64,000 nucleotides of DNA from Candidatus Zixiibacteriota bacterium (GTDB lineage Bacteria; Electryoneota; B3-LCP), in assembly GCA_003599535.1 (NCBI GenBank), contig QZKQ01000083.1, positions 14,584-78,583 of the forward strand, in the 5' to 3' direction. Below are positions 1,801 to 56,531 of the stretch, piece by piece. Position 1 is the first letter of the stretch; every line of letters begins with the position of its first letter. The notes under the pieces were generated by a model. That model saw only the letters and a list, made by a program, of their open reading frames with translations, ran no database searches and was not told the origin of the DNA. The position numbers and the translations under genes are program-made.

Positions 1801-2391
1801 ATGCGAATCGGTCTGACCGGCGGGATCGGCAGCGGGGCCAGCGAAGCGGCCCGTCGCCTGGAACAGATGGGGATACCGGTGATTTCCGCGGACGCGGTAG
1901 GCCATGATGTGCTCCTGGACCCGCTGGTGAAGCGTGAATTGGCCGCGGCCCTGGGGAATGACCTTTTCGACGCGGCTGGCGAGGTGGATCGCGCCAAGCT
2001 GGGGGCCCGGGTGTTCGCCGACCCCGAGGCGCGGCGTATACTGAACCGCCTCGTCCACCCCCTCCTGCTGGACGAAGTGGCGGCGCGAGCCCGGGAGGAA
2101 GAGGCCCGCAGCGGCATCGTGGTGGTGGACGCGGCGCTGATTTACGAATGGGGTTTCCAGGGGTTCTTCCAGAAGGTCATCGTGGTGGACGCCCCGATGG
2201 AACAGCGCATTCACCGGACCATGGCCCGCGACCAGCTGACCCGCGAGCAGGTCGAACAGCGCCTGGCTGCACAGTGGCCCCTGGAGAAGAAGGCCGCGCG
2301 CGCCGACGTGGTCATCACCAACGACGGGACGCTGGAGGAGCTGCAGAGGAAGGTGGAGGAGGCATGGAAAGTGATCATTGCCCCGCCGTAG
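1801..2391 (+). CDS. coaE: Dephospho-CoA kinase
   Basis: N-terminal P-loop MRIGLTGGIGSG. About 196 aa, typical CoaE length and motif order. Confidence 0.8.
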   Translation: MRIGLTGGIGSGASEAARRLEQMGIPVISADAVGHDVLLDPLVKRELAAALGNDLFDAAGEVDRAKLGARVFADPEARRILNRLVHPLLLDEVAARAREEEARSGIVVVDAALIYEWGFQGFFQKVIVVDAPMEQRIHRTMARDQLTREQVEQRLAAQWPLEKKAARADVVITNDGTLEELQRKVEEAWKVIIAPP

Positions 2392-2424
2392 AAATTATGA
2401 ATGATGAATGTATGAATTGTGAAT

Positions 2425-2449
2425 AAGCCCGCCGCTGGCGGGCTTTATT
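2425..2449 (+). terminator. Rho-independent terminator after coaE
   Basis: 9-bp GC-rich stem aagcccgcc/ggcgggctt with a 3-nt loop, followed by a tttattc T-run. Confidence 0.6.
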
Positions 2450-2455
2450 CGTTGC

Positions 2456-2703
2456 GTCAGGATTGAAGCGCAGCGGTCCCTGGCGGTGATCCCTTTAACG
2501 TTGCCGCCAGGATTGAAGCGGGGTTAACGAGCGCAGGATCTTTTACCGGGGCGGCGAATCCACCATGCACCTCCAAACTCTACCCGTCCAGATAGCGATT
2601 CCTGGCGGCGTATTGTCGGAATCACGGATCCAACGGATGAAACGGATGGAACGGATTTTACCCCTCGTCGGAACCGCAGATTTGCGCAGATTTAGCGGAT
2701 TTC
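2456..2703. repeat. Repeat-rich intergenic segment. It holds a partial inverted copy of the dispersed element found at 56217-56524, plus short direct repeats.
   Basis: The reverse complement of 2600-2700 (AAATCCGCTAAATCTGCGCAAATCTGCGGTTCCGACGAGGGG...ATCCGT) aligns over about 80 nt with 56388-56465 (TAATCTGCTAAATCTGCGGAAATCTGCGATTCTGACGAGGGATCC...ATCCGT). CAGGATTGAAGCG occurs twice, and ACGGATG/ACGGATT is triplicated. Confidence 0.5.
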
Positions 2704-2750
2704 TTAATTAAAAACCCACCGCCAGGTGGGTTCCAAATTTCCCTTTTCAA

Positions 2751-3441
2751 TTATTTCAGCAGCACCACTTTCCTCACCTGCGACCCATCCCCCGCCTCCA
2801 GCCTCACCAGGTACACCCCCGAAGGCAATCCCGACCCGTCGAACGTCACCTCGTGCGTTCCCGCCGGATACCACGCCTCCCTTGCCTGTAGGGGCGGGCC
2901 GACGTGGCCGCCCCCGGGGGCGACCACATAGGGTCGCCCCTACATTCCGTCCTCCCGTATCGAACACCGCCAGCCGCACCATCCCCGCCGCCGGCAGATC
3001 GAAGCGCAGGGCGGTGGAGGGGTTGAAGGGGTTGGGATGGACCCGGAGAGTAGGTTGGTCCGGGATGGGCGATTTATCCTCCGGCTTGACAGCCACGGAC
3101 TGATGATAGCTCTCATCCCCCAGCAAGACATGCACCCGGCCCCAGGAATGGTGCAGCAGGAATTGATAATAATTCGGCTCCCCCGCCACCAGATCATCAA
3201 TGCCGTCGCCGTTGAGGTCGCCAACATTGTCCAATCCCGAACCCAGTCCGGCGTCAAAATACAAACCATACATAATACAGTCTACTGACTCATTCAAACC
3301 TGCCTGGGTGCCCAGACCAGCTTGCCCCTTTCCCGCGGGGACCACTGCGTGGCAGGAGTCGCGCCACGCAGTGGCCCTTCGGGGCAACTCCCGTAGCGGA
3401 ACACCACCCGCCTCCTGTTTTTCATCCCGCAGGGATGACAT
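2751..3441 (-). pseudogene. Frameshifted remnant of an FG-GAP / T9SS-CTD secreted protein
   Basis: Frame A (ORF 2704..3441) encodes an FG-GAP motif (GDLNGDGIDDLVAG) and the start of a T9SS CTD (VHPNPFNPSTALRFDLP...LAVFDTGGR). The canonical CTD end (THEVTFDGSGLPSGVYLVRLEAGDGSQVRKVVLLK, stop at 2751-2753) is in a different frame. There is no signal peptide, so the N-terminus is missing. Confidence 0.55.
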
Positions 3442-3920
3442 GTGACGGGTGGCCTGGCTTGATCTGCATCACAGTCCTATCTTGCGGCAGAAAGTCCGAC
3501 GCAGATCAAGCCGGGTTTACATTATCCGCCATCCCTAGGCTTTTAATATAGACCCGGCTTGACCCGCCCATGAGCGTTGTTGATGTTTCGGATTCACTGC
3601 CGTGCGGGTCAAGCCAGGCCACCCAACATCGGCTGACGGAGGGGTTACACCCACTTCAGTGGGTAGTATGATAGTAGCCCAGGAATTCATTCCTGGGGGA
3701 GACGAGGCAGTCCCGGCCATTCCCTTCGGGCCCCCTGAAGGGGCAAGCTGGCCGGGCCACACACCGCGTAATCCACGTAATCCGTGGTTCAGACAATCCC
3801 CGGCGGGCCTCGCAATGACACTGCGGGCAGGGTCAAGCCCAGCCCCTACGCGTCGGACGACATGGATACCTGTTACATGGACACGAGACACAAAGCCCGG
3901 ATCCTACGATCCGGGCTTTG
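3442..3920. repeat. Structured non-coding region downstream of tRNA-Leu, with nested inverted repeats and hairpins
   Basis: Nested inverted repeats: outer GGCCTGGCTTGA...TCAAGCCAGGCC (about 3461/3617), GGCTTGATCTGC...GCAGATCAAGCC, and CCCGGCTTGACCCGC...GCGGGTCAAGCC. Hairpins: acccacTTCAgtgggt, cccaggaatTCattcctggg, and a 3888-3920 acacaaagcccggatc...gatccgggctttgtgt terminator-like stem. It also contains the 24-nt repeat CCGGCGGGCCTCGCAATGACACTG. Confidence 0.5.
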
Positions 3921-3923
3921 TGT

Positions 3924-4010
3924 TGGTGCCGGAGGCCGGATTTGAACCGGCACGCCCTTTCGAGCGCCACCCCCTCAAGATGGTGTGTCTGCCAATTTCA
4001 CCACTCCGGC
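3924..4010 (-). tRNA. tRNA-Leu (anticodon GAG)
   Basis: The reverse complement is GCCGGAGTGGTGAAATTGGCAGACACACCATCTTGAGGGGGTGGCGCTCGAAAGGGCGTGCCGGTTCAAATCCGGCCTCCGGCACCA. It has a 7-bp acceptor stem, a GTTCAAATC T-loop, a long variable arm, anticodon loop TTGAGGG, and a 3' CCA. Confidence 0.85.
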
Positions 4011-4087
4011 AGTCGTGCGCATGTGCCGCCCCGGATCCGGGTGCACCGGATCCGGGCGGTATCTGCAAAGGCGAGGGATATTCCGGG

Positions 4088-8706: not shown

Positions 8707-8797
8707 GATTTCAGTAATTCCTTCAGAAGTTCAGGAGATATATCTGCATCCCGGAGGATGGCAGCGAGCGATTATTAGGTGATGGTTGGATTATCCG

Positions 8798-8944
8798 CTA
8801 CCGGTATTCGATATGCAACTGAATGGCATCCTGAATACTGTGCAAAATCTCTTCGTAGGTGTCGCCTTGCGTGTGATACGCCTACAATTCGGGACAGAAA
8901 GCGAAATGGCCTTCAATGACGACGGCGAAACGGTAATGCTTCAT
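8798..8944 (-). pseudogene. HicB-family antitoxin-like remnant with an in-frame amber stop
   Basis: Minus-strand translation is MKHYRFAVVIEGHFAFCPEL*AYHTQGDTYEEILHSIQDAIQLHIEYR*. This fits the HicB/UPF0150 pattern (...PEL.GC.TQGDT.EEAL..I.EAI.L.LE), interrupted by TAG at 8882-8884. There is no adjacent hicA. Confidence 0.45.
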
Positions 8945-8978
8945 GAATGCTCGATTGACTTTCGCGCGTTAGATTCTT

Positions 8979-9368
8979 TCACAGAAAAGTGATGTTTCCG
9001 TGATCAGCGACACCCTCGAAATCGTGATCCAGCGTCACTAGTTGCAGGCCATGCATTTCTGCGATTTTAAACTGATACGCGTCATCAAAATCCAATGACC
9101 ATCGCTCATTCAATGAAGCCAGTTCCAAGCCATCTTCCGGCTTCAACCGCAGGATACCTACTTGATCGCGGATATCATTGATGAACCGGGTGAATAACTC
9201 GGATTTATGCAAGCGGAACAACACCACGCCGACAGAATGAAGCGAAAAATCGGACATAAACAGGTTATCCTGGTGCGTCGCCAGGAACTCTTTGCAAATA
9301 TCCTTCTTCTCCTGTGCCAGCAGGACTTCAAGAAAAATATTGGTGTCGGCCAGGTACATTACCGCCAC
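8979..9368 (-). CDS. vapC: PIN-domain toxin (VapC-like)
   Basis: N-terminal YLADTNIFLE (first PIN acidic residue). Conserved D/E positions and a C-terminal LDHDF motif. 129 aa. Confidence 0.75.
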   Translation of the reverse strand: MAVMYLADTNIFLEVLLAQEKKDICKEFLATHQDNLFMSDFSLHSVGVVLFRLHKSELFTRFINDIRDQVGILRLKPEDGLELASLNERWSLDFDDAYQFKIAEMHGLQLVTLDHDFEGVADHGNITFL

Positions 9369-9589
9369 TCCGTGGCTTTATGCTGTAATTCCACTGAAGT
9401 GAACCGGTCCTTGTATTCCTCCAGTCCCCCTTCCCAATCGAAGCGGAAACCTCGCTTGCCAGCTTGTGTACCGTACTTCTGCAATAAATACTCTATATAA
9501 TCCAGGGCCTCACGGCGGGCCTGTTCGGGCAACTGTGCCAACTTTTTCTGGATAATTTCACTGGTCATGAGAGTCACTCGATATTTCAT
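9359..9589 (-). CDS. Putative antitoxin partner of VapC (DUF2281-like)
   Basis: 76 aa. Overlaps the vapC start by 10 nt. The C-terminal RGFRFDWEGGLEEY resembles the DUF2281 antitoxin family. Confidence 0.55.
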   Translation of the reverse strand: MKYRVTLMTSEIIQKKLAQLPEQARREALDYIEYLLQKYGTQAGKRGFRFDWEGGLEEYKDRFTSVELQHKATEWR

Positions 9590-9631
9590 CGCAAGCGCCG
9601 GAGGCTGCCTCCGGCGCCTGCCGTTGCCTGC

Positions 9632-30472: not shown

Positions 30473-30558
30473 AGCACCCTTAACGAGAAATCCGACGGGC
30501 GGATCGTACGATCCGCCCGTTTTTTTCCATGTGCCTGTTAACTCGTCCTGTTAGAGTG

Positions 30559-30592
30559 ATGGAAAGATGGAAAGATTAAAAGATGGAAAGAT
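30559..30592. repeat. Tandem octamer repeat (GATGGAAA)n
   Basis: gatggaaagatggaaagattaaaagatggaaagatt. Confidence 0.6.
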
Positions 30593-30594
30593 TA

Positions 30595-30629
30595 GGGCGG
30601 CGTCACCGGTGACGCCGCCCTGTGTTTTT
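30595..30629 (+). terminator. Rho-independent terminator after lat
   Basis: Perfect 26-nt palindrome GGGCGGCGTCACCGGTGACGCCGCCC followed by TGTGTTTTT. Confidence 0.75.
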
Positions 30630-31074
30630 GCTGTCCGCTGCAAGCTGTCAGCTTGTTTCTGAGGCATGAGATTGCTTCGGCCCGCCGCTTCCCAGACCAC
30701 GCGGTCGTAACTGAACCTCCGAAGATCAAGGCACGGTTGAAGGTTCGTCTCCGGCGGGCCTCGCAATGACACTGGAGGGGGCCGGGGCAAAGCACTGACA
30801 CCGCCTTTGTTTTTCGCAGCTCACAGCTGTAAGCTGTCAGCTTTTTTCTTCCGCGGCGAGCAGGTGAGTACGATTGACGACGCCCGAGAGTCCGGCGATT
30901 TAAGCGTTTTCCCCGCCTCCGATGATTTTCTTTCGCCGATGCAATTATTAATTCGAAGAAAATTTACGTAAAAAATATCAAACCACCGCCTCCGGCATCC
31001 GGAGGCGTCATTCCCGCCCTTCCAGAGCCCTTTCCGGCCGAGGGGACGGCGTAACCTCAAGGGGGAGATGCGCT

Positions 31075-31359
31075 ATGGCTGGGGAATCGAAGACCACCAC
31101 CGATCACAAGACCATCCGCAAGTGGATCGAGGAGCGTGAAGGCCGGCCGGCCACGGTAAAGCGCACCGGCGACAAGGAAGATCCCGGCATCCTGCGGGTG
31201 GATTTCCCGGGGTATGGCGACAGCACCAGCCTGGAACCCATTTCCTGGGAAGAATTCTTCCAGAAATTCGATGAGAAGAAGCTGGCCTTCCTGTACCAGG
31301 AAACGACCAAGGAAGGGAAGACCAGCCGGTTCTTCAAATTCGTCAATCGCCAGACCTGA
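31075..31359 (+). CDS. Hypothetical small protein (94 aa)
   Basis: AT-richer ORF with an RBS-like GGGGGAG upstream. No family confidently recognised. Confidence 0.4.
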   Translation: MAGESKTTTDHKTIRKWIEEREGRPATVKRTGDKEDPGILRVDFPGYGDSTSLEPISWEEFFQKFDEKKLAFLYQETTKEGKTSRFFKFVNRQT

Positions 31360-31848
31360 CCATCTGGCGCCATGCTACGCCGATATTCGGCCCGGTAAAG
31401 CTTGAACCTCCGAGGCGTCCGGCAGGAATTCGCCCCTCACGGAGCAACGAATCTATTTCAGGATCACTTTTTCATATCCCTGCCACACCGCCGCCTGAAT
31501 CCTTCTTTTCCAGACACCCATCCTGGTGAGGCCTCGCCCGATCACCGGGCCGCGGACTGCATTCCCGGCCGGCCGCCGCGAGGCGCCGCATCGAACCTCC
31601 AAGCCATCCCGGCGCCGGCACAACCGTAGTCGGAGTCCAGCTTACCAAGCCGAAGTGCGCCTTGCCGGCCGGAGTCGCTCCGCCCGGCATACCGCCGCCG
31701 CAGGCCGCCGCTTTGCGCCGCGGGCGAGTCCTGCCGTTTGCGGATTTCGCGCCGCGATGGCTCTTGCTGCCGGGGCGCCTGAGGCCGCCGGACCACCGGG
31801 CCGGTTTTCGCACTCGAACCATCGTCTTCATCACCGGAGGGTACATTC

Positions 31849-37488: not shown

Positions 37489-38606
37489 GCAGGCTGCGCG
37501 TGGTCATCCTGGGGCTGTCCATCACCTCCTCCTGGGGCAACGGCCATGCCGTGACCTACCGCGCCCTGGTCCGGGCGCTGACCCGCCGGGGGCATCAGGT
37601 CCTGTTCCTGGAGCGCGACAAGCCGTGGTACGCCCATAACCGGGATCTCCCCCACCCCCCCTTCGGCCGCACCGAGCTGTACGGCGGCCTGGAAGAGCTG
37701 CGCGACCGCTTTGCCGGGGAGGTGCGCGAGGCGGACCTGGTGATGGTGGGATCCTTCGTGCCGGAGGGGATCGCGGCGGGGGGCTGGGTCCTGGATCAGG
37801 CGCGCGGCCTGACCGCCTTTTACGACATTGACACCCCCGTGACCCTGGGAAAGCTGGAGCGAGGGGAGTGCTCCTACCTGGCGGTGCGGCAAATCGCCCG
37901 CTATGACCTCTACCTCTCCTTCACCGGCGGCCCGACGCTGGAGCGCCTGGGGCGGGAATTCGGATCCCCCATGGCCCGCCCGCTGTACTGCTCGGTGGAC
38001 CCGGAGCAGTACTTCCCCGAAGAAACCGAACTGCGCTGGGACCTGGGCTACCTGGGCACCTACAGCCTTGACCGCCAACCGGCGGTGGACCGCCTGCTGA
38101 CTCATCCCGCCCGCGATTGGCTGGAAGGCCGCTTCACCGTGGCCGGGCCACAGTACCCGGCGGACCTGGATTGGCCGGCCAACGTGGCCCGGATCGAGCA
38201 CCTTCCGCCGCCGGAACACCGCCGGTTCTACAACGCCCAGCGCTTCACCCTGAACGTCACCCGCGCGGACATGATTCGGGCGGGATGGTCGCCCAGCGTG
38301 CGGCTGTTCGAAGCGGCGGCGTGCGGCACGCCGATCATCAGCGACTGGTGGGAGGGGCTGGACCAGTTCTTCACCCCGGGGCGGGAAATCTTCCTGCCGG
38401 CCTCCCCCGCCGAAGTCCTGACTATCCTGCGGAAAATGCCCGAGGAGGTGCGCCGGACTGCCGGCCAGGCCATCCGGCGGCGGGTCTTTCAGACCCACAC
38501 CGCCGAGCACCGGGCGCGGGAACTCGAAGCCTTCGTTCTCGAACGGCAGACCCAAGTTGCCGGGCAGAGACAGGCGGCGGGATGGAGCACGGCGGTTTCC
38601 CCCTGA
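37485..38606 (+). CDS. CgeB-family / DUF3880-type glycosyltransferase (paralog 2)
   Basis: Paralog of the previous ORF: LGYLGTYSLDRQ...LFEAAACGTPIISD. 4-nt overlap with the previous gene. Confidence 0.55.
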   Translation: MSRLRVVILGLSITSSWGNGHAVTYRALVRALTRRGHQVLFLERDKPWYAHNRDLPHPPFGRTELYGGLEELRDRFAGEVREADLVMVGSFVPEGIAAGGWVLDQARGLTAFYDIDTPVTLGKLERGECSYLAVRQIARYDLYLSFTGGPTLERLGREFGSPMARPLYCSVDPEQYFPEETELRWDLGYLGTYSLDRQPAVDRLLTHPARDWLEGRFTVAGPQYPADLDWPANVARIEHLPPPEHRRFYNAQRFTLNVTRADMIRAGWSPSVRLFEAAACGTPIISDWWEGLDQFFTPGREIFLPASPAEVLTILRKMPEEVRRTAGQAIRRRVFQTHTAEHRARELEAFVLERQTQVAGQRQAAGWSTAVSP

Positions 38607-55259: not shown

Positions 55260-56197
55260 GCCCGGGCCTCGGGCTCGCCCAGCAGCACGCGGGCGAAGGC
55301 TTCCGGGTCGAACTCGTCCAGGTCGTCCATCTTTTCGCCCAGCCCGATGAAGCGCACCGGAAGATTCAGCTCGTGGCACACGGAGATGACCGCGCCGCCC
55401 TTGGCGGTGCCGTCCAGCTTGGCCACTACCAGTCCGGTGACGCCGCTGATATCCTGGAATACCCGGGCCTGCTGCACCATGTTCTGGCCGGTGTTGGCGT
55501 CCAGCACCAGCAGGACCTCGTGTGGGGCGTCCGCGTCGAGTTTCTTCAGCACCCGGCCGATCTTGGACAGTTCCTGCATCAGGTTGGCCTTGTTGTGCAG
55601 CCGGCCGGCGGTGTCTATGATGAGCAGGTCTACCCCGCGGGCCTTGGCTGCCTGCAGGGCGTCGAAGGCTACGGCGGCGGGGTCGGCACCGGCCCCCTGG
55701 CTGATGACAGGCAGCCCCAGCCGGTCGCCCCACATGGAAAGCTGTTCGCTGGCCGCGGCGCGGAAGGTATCCCCGGCGGCCAGGAGCACCCGCCGGCCGT
55801 CCTGCTGAAACTTGCGGGCCAGTTTGGCGATGGTCGTGGTCTTGCCGCTGCCGTTGACCCCCACCACCAGGATCACGGCGGGCCGGGCGGAGAGGTTCAG
55901 ACCGTTTTCCCGGGCGGCCGGCGCCATCATTTCGGCGATCACTTCCCCCAGCAGGGCGCGGACGTTGGCGGCGTTGTCGTCGCTCATGGCGGAGGCGCGG
56001 CGCACCTTGTCGCGCAGCGCCTGGAGGATATCCTCGGCCGTTTGCACACCCACGTCAGCGGTCAGCAACGCCTCTTCCAATTCGGCGTAGAGGTCTTCGT
56101 CAATGCGGGGATGGGAGGAGAGCACCCGGCGGATGCTGTCACCAAAGGCCTGCTGGGTCTTGACCAGCTTCTCTTTTAGTTTTCCGAAGAGGGACAT
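55256..56197 (-). CDS. ftsY: Signal recognition particle receptor FtsY
   Basis: NG domain with GVNGSGKTTTIAKLA, DTAGR, and GTPase motifs. Confidence 0.9.
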   Translation of the reverse strand: MSLFGKLKEKLVKTQQAFGDSIRRVLSSHPRIDEDLYAELEEALLTADVGVQTAEDILQALRDKVRRASAMSDDNAANVRALLGEVIAEMMAPAARENGLNLSARPAVILVVGVNGSGKTTTIAKLARKFQQDGRRVLLAAGDTFRAAASEQLSMWGDRLGLPVISQGAGADPAAVAFDALQAAKARGVDLLIIDTAGRLHNKANLMQELSKIGRVLKKLDADAPHEVLLVLDANTGQNMVQQARVFQDISGVTGLVVAKLDGTAKGGAVISVCHELNLPVRFIGLGEKMDDLDEFDPEAFARVLLGEPEARA

Positions 56198-56216
56198 TCA
56201 GGATCTCTGATTTGGA

Positions 56217-56524
56217 GCCACAGATGAACACAGATAAAGAAGCCAGAAACCAGAATTCAGGAGCCAGGAGCACACAATCCAGAAGGGATTGCATCCGTCG
56301 GCCGACGGATAGCCGGGGTGTGCACCCCCCGGAGGAGGACGATTCATCTGCCTCCCCTTGCGACCCTGACGGGGTCGAACATCATCAGCGTAATCTGCTA
56401 AATCTGCGGAAATCTGCGATTCTGACGAGGGATCCCAATCCGTATAACCCGTTCGATCGGTGATATGGTCGCGCGGGTATAACCATGGGTGACATTATCT
56501 GTGCTTATCTGTGCAATCTGTGGC
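56217..56524. mobile_element. MITE-like dispersed repeat element (about 308 bp) with imperfect terminal inverted repeats
   Basis: Left end GCCACAGATGAACACAGATAAAG. Right end reverse-complements to GCCACAGATTGCACAGATAAGCACAGATAA. Internal CCGTCGGCCGACGG palindrome and (AAATCTGCG)x3. An internal 80-nt core is shared with 2600-2700. The internal 83-aa ORF was judged non-coding. Confidence 0.4.
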
Positions 56525-56531
56525 TAAATGG

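Follow-up and report, generated by a model that had tools for sequence, protein, structure and literature searches.

A REP-type repeat cluster and a T9SS gene fragment as probable filler between coaE and tRNA-Leu(GAG) in Candidatus Zixiibacteriota

Positions 2456-3887 of the window (the whole 64 kb stretch of DNA analysed here) occupy a convergent spacer and are probably non-functional, lineage-specific filler, composed of the 3' fragment of a T9SS gene and a cluster of REP-type repeats. A REP-type cluster together with a gene fragment is a known kind of feature, ordinary bacterial junk DNA, in a new host phylum. The four components that a sequence-only reading of this locus had described were all recovered at or near the places where it had put them, and its interpretation is borne out as far as the segment is a lineage-specific addition, as comparison with five related lineages shows. 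The origins it had proposed, by contrast, fared poorly and are weighed below.

Locus architecture and the extra DNA

The genes coaE (plus strand) and tRNA-Leu(GAG) (minus strand) are convergent, and the extra DNA sits between their two terminators:

1801-2391, plus strand: coaE (PF01121 match)
2425-2445, plus strand: intrinsic terminator of coaE, left edge of the extra DNA (terminator scan)
3888-3923: tRNA terminator, a 16 bp perfect hairpin touching the tRNA 3' end, right edge of the extra DNA (inverted repeat)
3924-4010, minus strand: tRNA-Leu(GAG) (ARAGORN; Rfam tRNA, 47 bits; near-identical in relatives)

The extra DNA had been described as abutting the tRNA 3' end, from which it is in fact separated by the 36-nt terminator hairpin at 3888-3923; a positional equivalent of this hairpin was found in 3/3 relatives aligned at that junction. 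A hairpin equivalent to the coaE terminator is also present in relatives, directly 3' of coaE. Five related Zixibacteria loci share the gene order S8/FG-GAP protein, coaE, tRNA-Leu(GAG), secG, tpiA, pgk, gap, and the distance from coaE to the tRNA-Leu 3' end is 75, 77, 50, 153, and 68 nt in these loci compared with 1532 nt here. Given spacers of 50-153 nt in the relatives, ~1.4 kb is therefore lineage-specific extra DNA. A TpiA search of genome contigs returned only distant relatives (≤60% identity), all without coaE adjacency.

The GC content of the segment is 0.52-0.60, compared with 0.65-0.70 in the flanks. Within the spacer, codon-position GC periodicity is confined to about 2700-3300, where third-position GC is lower than in neighbouring genes, in agreement with the earlier statement that the stretch from the coaE terminator to the tRNA 3' end contains no intact gene. 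The companion statement that the window is otherwise gene-dense stands in part, gene density being less uniform than described, with several other gaps of 0.5-1 kb in a rough ORF map. Perfect inverted repeats of at least 10 nt occur at 7.7/kb in 2392-4087 vs 2/kb window-wide (~4-fold), and the segment has fold z-scores of -9.7 on the plus strand and -8.6 on the minus strand.

The T9SS cargo gene remnant and dispersed repeats

The left part of the extra DNA holds the gene remnant and short repeats; a further dispersed repeat lies near the right edge:

2455-2520: direct repeat CGYCAGGATTGAAGCG x2 (2455-2470 and 2505-2520), enclosing a CCTGGCGG/CCGCCAGG hairpin; no coding periodicity
2620-2701, plus strand: partial dispersed-repeat copy with 9-10 nt tandem motifs (AACGGATNN x4, GCGCAGATTT x3)
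2706-2739, minus strand: the remnant's own terminator, a hairpin and T-run past the stop codon (inverted repeat)
2751-2886, minus strand: 3' half of the T9SS CTD in a shifted frame, up to the stop codon (ORF 2751-2927, phase-specific GC)
2887-2944: GTAG...CTAC palindrome in the CTD coding sequence, two inverted GTAG-tagged hairpin units forming a head-to-head REP dimer (inverted repeat)
2945-3290, minus strand: 5' part of the remnant, made up of the final FG-GAP repeat and, joined by a linker, the first CTD half (PF01839, 27 bits)
3797-3823: dispersed repeat ...CCGGCGGGCCTCGCAATGACACTG, 26/27 identity to 30748-30774

The remnant conforms to its earlier description as an FG-GAP/T9SS-CTD fragment without signal peptide whose CTD is split over two frames: PF01839 and half of Por_Secre_tail were found, with ORF 2751-2927 matching positions 42-74 of 75 of the latter. 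Homology and coding periodicity begin at ~3290-3300, homologs aligning only from there on; the N-terminal region and signal peptide are absent, and the upstream frame contains no signal-like sequence. A decayed 5' gene part hidden in 3300-3890 was considered and rejected, as this interval shows neither periodicity nor similarity to homologs. The idea that the remnant is a local inverted copy of the upstream S8/FG-GAP gene was likewise rejected for lack of similarity. Read on the minus strand, the terminator of the remnant is cccacctggcggtgggttttt.

As encoded, the CTD (PF18962) is incomplete, with half the domain matching at 20.9 bits compared with a 27-bit cutoff. The CTD is frameshifted because a 56-58 nt GTAG...CTAC palindrome sits inside its coding sequence; in silico removal of 58 or 52 nt of palindrome restored the frame and yielded a full-length Por_Secre_tail, at 29.9 and 32.8 bits, respectively (cutoff 27). 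A programmed +1 frameshift at the palindrome was rejected, the gene having no 5' part and the site no slippery or stop context. A GTAG-type hairpin occupies one CTD codon (after GR-N/R-V) in three homologous genes, among which its length varies. Homolog L210 has, at the CTD codon where the window palindrome sits, one GTAG hairpin that keeps the frame; L210 and the window share 19 identical nt, GGACGGAATGTAGGGGCGA, leading into the hairpin as well as a conserved outer stem, their inner stems differ, and the window is 37 nt longer there. For the third of these genes, P0128 (RJP74104.1), an in-frame palindrome is predicted at that codon. The locus shows clearly how a REP dimer can break a coding frame, a single unit being tolerated in frame at the equivalent codon of a homolog. 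This is useful to annotators, because such palindromes produce spurious ORFs and apparent frameshifts in metagenome-assembled genomes (MAGs).

The partial copy of a dispersed repeat reported at 2600-2700 could be matched elsewhere in the window: 2633-2701 aligns with the reverse complement of 56392-56461 (79% over 70 nt, E=5e-11). Motifs of the type seen in 2620-2701 also occur in unrelated metagenome contigs. The CCTGGCGG/CCGCCAGG motif recurs in inverted pairs at 2479-2488, 2503-2512, 2600-2609, and 2717-2726, with local hairpin pairing at 2479-2512 read from the sequence. Tandem motifs GTAATCCAC and CACAGAT were considered as DnaA boxes or iterons and found no support. On the minus strand, 3797-3823 reads TGTC-ATTGCGAGG, which under published rules (PMC3733652) corresponds to a truncated CGTC-type REP that retains its tag and the first arm of its stem.

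GTAG-tagged and CGTC-like palindromes

Besides the dimer in the CTD, the following elements were identified:

3305-3330/3738-3763: outer inverted-repeat pair with AGCTTGCCC cores around the inner hairpins (26 nt at 85%)
3339-3377: hairpin with a 12 bp perfect stem, CCACTGCGTGGC (inverted repeat)
3447-3624: two tandem ~75 nt hairpins, 3453-3515 and 3553-3618, REP-dimer-like bodies without tags (inverted repeats)
3674-3697, plus strand: GTAG-tagged perfect hairpin CCCAGGAA-ttca-TTCCTGGG (sub-threshold Acido-Lenti-1 match, 26 vs 37 bits)
3825-3849, minus strand: REP unit with GTAG tag and GGGCTGGG-CTTGA-CCCTGCCC body, the sole local CTTGA-loop hairpin in the window

GTAG tags directly flank a stem-loop in four units, at 2888-2913(+), 2918-2943(-), 3674-3697(+), and 3825-3849(-), as in GTAG REPs. 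Their stems measure 8 bp and their loops 4-6 nt, REP limits being 5-13 bp for stems and 2-20 nt for loops (PMC3733652 Table 1). At 2887-2944 two units lie head to head, 1-2 bp apart, with tags pointing outward and 29-nt arms that are 83% complementary. These 1.5 kb contain 4 of the window's 16 GTAG-plus-hairpin sites and every one of its three GTAGGGGC hairpins, and neither a further GTAGGGGC hairpin nor a GGCTTGAyCyGC arm was found elsewhere in the 64 kb. Palindromes of the form GTAGGGGCG...CGCCCCTAC are plentiful in public contigs, two-unit forms of 47-50 nt included.

Seven RGCTTGMYC cores are arranged in nested inverted orientation at 3305-3849, accounting for 7/15 of the window's sites within 520 nt. 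Those of the outer pair are located at 3319 and 3741-3749; an inner inverted-repeat pair lies at 3501-3524/3544-3567, and a 29-nt inverted repeat at 3447-3475/3596-3624 closes the tandem hairpin pair. Nested inverted repeats and perfect hairpins had been reported for 3442-3920; all three pairs were found, the left arm of the outermost one (3305) falling outside that interval. The four arms of the tandem hairpins, CCnGGCTTGAyCyGC, alternate + - + -, the inverted arms being 33 and 36 nt apart, within the 20-100 bp accepted for head-to-head CGTC-REP dimers.

The 12-mer of these arms, GGCTTGACCCGC, forms the core that stays invariant throughout a widespread family of CGTC-tagged REPs. The 242 units of this family, which is abundant in termite-gut and soil metagenomes (L088-L207), have CGTC or TGTC tags and AT-starting stems of 8-9 bp; their loops are 5 nt long and their tails mostly CCA, CTC, or CCC. 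The metagenome family itself fits the published features of CGTC REPs, i.e., a CGTC, TGTC, or CCTC tag, an 8-9 bp AT-starting stem, a 4-5 nt loop, and a short CCA-like tail (PMC3733652). The window arms at 3453-3467, 3501-3515, 3553-3567, and 3604-3618 carry the core 12-mer only, with no tag and no local stem, and fall outside this definition; 6/7 RGCTTGMYC cores have no tag and local stem of the kind defining a REP unit. R1, a covariance model derived from 118 metagenome elements, gave 23 and 15 bits at 3447-3624, in both cases from the core alone. As the family match had been found with a window-derived pattern, this score is circular, and we rejected it as proof of full CGTC membership, only the pattern-defined core matching. 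The CTTGA-loop hairpin at 3825-3849, of which 0.06 are expected by chance, combines a GTAG tag with a CGTC-family body, which hints at module exchange between REP superfamilies or at a common mobilising enzyme. CGTC REPs have no known transposase, and their mobilisation has been left open (PMC3733652).

Origin of the segment and relation to known systems

The segment may have arisen when a larger DNA piece with the cargo gene landed between both terminators via rearrangement or insertion. The 5' part of that gene would have been deleted afterwards, and REP-type elements, favouring sites downstream of convergent genes, would have built up in the neutral DNA and dead gene. They could have spread by means of a RAYT-like HUH transposase, or by an unknown route as for CGTC REPs. 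Any role today probably goes no further than hairpins influencing transcription termination and RNA stability at the coaE and tRNA-Leu ends.

A gene fragment and repeats would also be left by an island that integrated at tRNA-Leu and from which the integrase and most cargo later disappeared. Consistent with such a scar, the tRNA is close by, the segment is missing in five relatives and lower in GC than its flanks, and the neighbourhood is variable in the clade: one relative carries ~640 bp of inserted DNA on the tRNA 5' side, where a weak BrnT-like match occurs, and synteny is lost right after coaE in another. We nonetheless regard this origin, which the sequence-only reading had put forward, as unlikely. 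Probing 2456-3920 with a 27-mer and a 14-mer of the tRNA 3' end (≤3 mismatches) and with blastn-short revealed no att-like direct repeat, Pfam and PHROG searches of 10 stop-to-stop frames outside the remnant returned no hit at all, be it an integrase, transposase, or phage domain, and the segment had no blastn match in phage and plasmid collections. Moreover, the ancestral terminator hairpin stands between insert and tRNA, whereas an element of this kind would start within or right at the tRNA 3' end, and no gene is recognisable other than a T9SS cargo paralog of ordinary chromosomal type. Similarly, the structured RNA locus that had been suggested is very improbable. In this scenario 3300-3890 would encode a non-coding or cis-regulatory RNA, e.g., an attenuator-like one with alternative pairings 1:2, 2:3, and 3:4, which the four arms permit and with which the very stable predicted fold (z = -9.7), a weak sigma-70-like site at 3644-3672, and the sub-threshold Acido-Lenti-1 match are compatible. 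However, the reverse strand folds equally well (z = -8.6), as DNA palindromes should, the hairpins fall within DNA palindromic repeat families or look like their members, and cores of known families are found in the arms. Rfam searches of the region, at gathering score and also at E≤10, passed only the tRNA, the best other matches being Thr_leader (29 vs 55 bits, on the terminator hairpin) and Acido-Lenti-1. None of the relatives carries the segment, and no downstream gene is available for regulation, because coaE and tRNA-Leu both point into the region.

An artefact, either a contig mis-joined at repeats or a frameshift arising from a 1-nt error at the palindrome's C5G5 centre (2909-2922), would be conceivable for a short-read MAG in a region rich in repeats and hairpins, the frame change falling within a GC-rich palindrome with homopolymer runs. 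We give it little credence: both flanks are syntenic with relatives, and any assembly error would therefore be internal; the whole 5' part of the remnant is missing whatever the frameshift; and JGI and NCBI records carry identical sequence, though probably from one assembly. There is a similarly small chance that the palindromes are not passive junk and constitute a maintained intragenic frame switch, in which changes in hairpin length could bring the cargo gene into frame or throw it out, or, separately, that modules pass between the two REP superfamilies or one enzyme mobilises both.

Filler made of a gene fragment and a REP-type cluster thus remains our preferred reading, and the result is mainly negative: we take the locus to be neither a prophage or island scar nor a new RNA, and it is therefore not worth pursuing as either. 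With it, GTAG-type and CGTC-like REP palindromes are recorded in Candidatus Zixiibacteriota as well.

Like tRNA-associated islands, the locus has lineage-specific DNA adjoining a tRNA gene; unlike them, it contains no integrase, att repeat, or mobile-element genes, and its insertion point lies past the tRNA terminator. With CGTC-2 to CGTC-4 REPs (PMC3733652) it shares an identical arm core, GGCTTGACCCGC, inverted arms with a spacer of 33-36 nt (family range 25-45), and, near these arms, a single CTTGA-loop unit and TGTC-ATTGCGAGG in truncated form. The window arms differ in having no CGTC tag, AT-starting 8-9 bp stem, or CCA tail, and the sole complete CTTGA-loop unit bears a GTAG tag.

The resemblance to GTAG REPs and REP dimers (REPINs/BIMEs; Di Nocera et al. 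2013, PMC3733652) extends to GTAG directly beside a GC-rich 8 bp stem with a 4-6 nt loop, and to inverted units with tags outside and 1-2 bp between them. GTAG REPs occur in many copies per genome, whereas the window units were counted in 64 kb of genome. In many public copies the tag is not strictly unpaired, unlike in GTAG REPs, because GTAG pairs with the terminal CTAC. GTAG REPs associate with RAYT (Y1 transposase), and no RAYT gene was found among the 10 small or unannotated window ORFs scanned. RAYT-associated REPs were reportedly treated by Nunvar in 2010 and by Bertels and Rainey in 2011. In placement, too, the window units resemble GTAG REPs: they occupy a convergent spacer, a gene being interrupted in one case, and homologs have in-frame copies. 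Most REPs lie between ORFs that are convergent or unidirectional, and some fall within genes (PMC3733652). Compared with intragenic REP proteins, including Rickettsia RPE insertions (reviewed in PMC3733652), the window dimer, 37 nt longer than the L210 hairpin, breaks the frame of a gene that is already truncated. The common feature is a palindrome inside coding sequence, tolerated in frame at one conserved site in L210/P0129 and, by prediction, in P0128.

Layout of the coaE/tRNA-Leu spacer and its counterparts in relatives

The coaE product encoded in the window is 100% identical to RJP76899.1, and the metagenome-assembled genome (MAG) is assigned to Candidatus Zixiibacteriota. The features around the studied region are:

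up to 1787, plus strand: C-terminal part of a large FG-GAP/Big_5 protein extending past the window's left end
1801-2391, plus strand: coaE
2425-2445, plus strand: coaE terminator
2456-3887: studied region
3888-3923: perfect hairpin of 16 bp
3924-4010, minus strand: tRNA-Leu(GAG)
from 4088, minus strand: secG, then tpiA, pgk and gap

GC periodicity by codon position is strong in the flanking genes and, within the region, confined to ~2700-3300, in agreement with the sequence-only reading that no intact gene is present. The region is indeed gene-poor, but the remainder of the window is less uniformly gene-dense than proposed, with other gaps of 0.5-1 kb. Stretches of 0.6-1.4 kb without an obvious high-GC3 ORF lie at 30473-31848, 55734-56510, 8707-9631 and 37489-38116, and several ORF-poor stretches carry perfect 26-28 nt hairpins (30495-30520, 30594-30621) and repeat pieces common to the studied region. 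CCCGGATCCGGG-type palindromes flank tRNA-Leu on both sides, at 3895-3916 within its terminator hairpin and at 4026-4059 as a 14 bp hairpin in the secG/tRNA-Leu interval.

The order S8/FG-GAP protein, coaE, tRNA-Leu(GAG), secG, tpiA, pgk, gap is kept in five distinct Zixibacteria lineages (L081/L083, L084, L087, L211 and L212); the best coaE identity to any relative is 63%, with no closer relative among those compared. The coaE stop and the tRNA 3' end are 75, 77, 50, 153 and 68 nt apart in these lineages, compared with 1532 nt in the window. In the three relatives aligned at the junction (L081, L084, L087), a hairpin stands immediately against the tRNA 3' end, and its positional equivalent in the window is 3888-3923. 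Because the relatives' spacers are short and the tRNA-side hairpin is kept, ~1.43 kb were gained between the two terminators in the window's lineage. This extra DNA, missing from all five lineages, does not abut the tRNA 3' end as had been suggested, since the hairpin stands between them. L081 and L083 harbor a ~640 bp insert in the tRNA-Leu/secG interval (L081:8748-9385, L083:1304-1941) with two small overlapping ORFs, one matching the BrnT toxin weakly (20 bits, under cutoff), and in the relative L085 synteny is gone immediately past coaE. As the L081/L083 insert sits on the opposite side of the tRNA, the tRNA-Leu neighbourhood is unstable in this clade and variable on both sides.

A sorting-domain gene remnant divided by a GTAG palindrome

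The minus strand of the region encodes an FG-GAP repeat and a Por_Secre_tail domain (the T9SS C-terminal sorting domain, CTD), the latter divided between two frames, as recognized before. Between the two CTD halves lies a 58-nt palindrome (2887-2944) built from a pair of hairpin units in inverted orientation. Both carry GTAG at their head, followed by GGGCGACC-ctatgt-GGTCGCCC in one and GGGCGGGC-cgacgt-GGCCGCCC in the other. In-silico excision of 58 or 52 nt at the palindrome yields a single CTD frame, in which Por_Secre_tail matches over its full length at 29.9 and 32.8 bits, higher than the Pfam cutoff; the half-domain actually encoded scores 20.9 bits. The nearest relatives of the remnant are other Zixibacteria-type CTD proteins, and no close copy was found in the window or in the relatives' loci.

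The homologous CTD gene P0129 (locus L210) contains the identical 19 nt GGACGGAATGTAGGGGCGA followed by one hairpin (L210:300-370, arms GGGCGAAGCA/TGCTTCGCCC), in frame and at the same codon as the window palindrome; the window is 37 nt (3n+1) longer at this site. A further protein, P0128, has an accession from the NCBI series that includes the window coaE product and may for this reason be a paralog encoded in this MAG; it reads GRRVAGARHASPLPAGEAWYPAG at the site, as would result from translating a similar palindrome in frame. A GTAG-type palindrome is thereby placed at one shared codon position, following GR(N/R)V, in three homologous T9SS sorting-domain genes, that of P0128 being predicted from protein. 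Inner stems differ between the window and L210, palindrome lengths vary among all three, and the palindrome is in frame in L210 and, as predicted, in P0128, and frameshifting in the window.

Palindromes of the form GTAGGGGCG...CGCCCCTAC (28-50 nt, two-unit forms included) are abundant in public contigs. They are common in IMG/VR contigs classed as viral (L213-L316, at least 120 stretches), where the matches listed include up to five copies per contig (e.g. L263) and lengths clustering at 28-32 nt and 41-50 nt.

Dispersed repeats, nested hairpins and REP-type units

Inverted-repeat and hairpin density in the region is ~4x the window average. The nested inverted repeats and perfect hairpins described from sequence are real, but the outermost begins at 3305, left of the segment to which they had been assigned. 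The reported partial copy of a dispersed repeat is likewise present (2633-2701, 79% identical to the reverse complement of 56392-56461), and 3797-3823 matches 30748-30774 at 26/27 positions. Short motifs repeated in tandem every 9-10 nt (AACGGATNN, GCGCAGATTT, GTAATCCNCG, CACAGATNN) are found repeatedly in this genome, in the window at 2627-2700, 3768-3787, 56219-56250 and 56392-56530; those at 56.2-56.5 kb, in inverted orientation, flank a ~300 nt intergenic element. Similar motifs occur on unrelated termite-gut contigs (L119:~465, L203:~735), and at L160:392-440 a tandem motif lies immediately beside a CGTC-tagged REP, a small palindromic repeat.

Seven of the window's 15 RGCTTGMYC sites fall within 3319-3839 (orientations + + - + - - -). 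Two hairpins in tandem, at 3453-3515 and 3553-3618, account for four of these sites (arms GGCTTGATCTGC and GGCTTGACCCGC); where the two differ, the changes are compensated inside each hairpin, with an outer inverted repeat of 29 nt closing the two. Scanning metagenomes with the window arm pattern returned at least 120 stretches, with one family among the matches listed: CGTC-ATTGCGGG-CTTGA-CCCGCAAT-CYC, followed after a 25-45 nt spacer by its inverse. Across 242 units among these matches (minimum stem 7 bp), the tag is CGTC in 131 and TGTC in 61, stems measure 8-9 bp in 220 and start with AT in 193, and CCA, CTC and CCC are the commonest tails. The family is not in Rfam; it agrees with CGTC-tagged REPs as defined in the literature, where most occur as head-to-head dimers separated by 20-100 bp spacers (PMC3733652). 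Such dimers are very abundant in termite-gut and soil metagenomes (L088-L207; e.g. L097:3005-3078, L151:2698-2780 and 3032-3114), and their stems covary among variants (ATTGCGGG, ACCCGCGGG, ATGCGCGGG, ATCGGCGGG) around a constant loop.

The window arms share with this family an invariant 12-mer and its spacing, no more; unlike CGTC-tagged REPs, they have neither tag nor local stem. Covariance-model matches on the arms (23 and 15 bits) cover the core only and are circular, because the search pattern was derived from the window. The sole complete local unit, at 3825-3849 on the minus strand, consists of GTAG followed by GGGCTGGG-CTTGA-CCCTGCCC (0.06 expected by chance); a truncated TGTC-ATTGCGAGG piece adjoins it and is the same as the dispersed repeat at 30.7 kb.

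Origin of the region

The sequence-only reading offered the scar of an integrative element at the tRNA or a structured RNA locus. A scar is unlikely: the tRNA 3' end is not directly repeated at any place in the window, Pfam and PHROGs gave no match to any of ten stop-to-stop frames other than the remnant, phage and plasmid records show no similarity to the region, and all that can be recognized as coding in it is an ordinary T9SS cargo paralog. A structured RNA is the least credible of the readings. Folding is strong but alike on both strands (z-scores -9.7 and -8.6), tRNA alone reaches the Rfam gathering score in the region, the segment is absent from relatives, and nothing lies downstream to regulate, as coaE and tRNA-Leu both point inward. 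In gathering mode, an Rfam scan over all 64 kb of the window did not pick up tRNA-Leu, which scored 47 bits with the same library when 1.9 kb was searched; this is a filter effect, and empty whole-window scans call for caution. That assembly or sequencing error produced the region seems very improbable. We give equally little credence to a joint proposal in which the CTD-embedded hairpin would be a maintained length-variable switch and the hybrid unit of GTAG tag and CGTC body would reflect shared mobilization of two REP superfamilies.

The region is probably a cluster of REP-type repeats together with a gene fragment. The convergent coaE/tRNA-Leu spacer would have acquired a DNA segment, foreign or rearranged, most of which would then have been lost, leaving a dead gene tail that REP-type palindromes may have colonized. 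No REP-associated transposase (RAYT) was found among ten window ORFs scanned. GTAG and CGTC REPs lie mainly between convergent or unidirectional genes near 3' ends, as dimers and clusters, occasionally intragenic, in some cases with orthologs carrying them at one shared site (PMC3733652). A convergent spacer holding a dead gene tail and REP-type palindromes fits this description. The kind of feature is already known, and what is new is the host phylum and the particular units.
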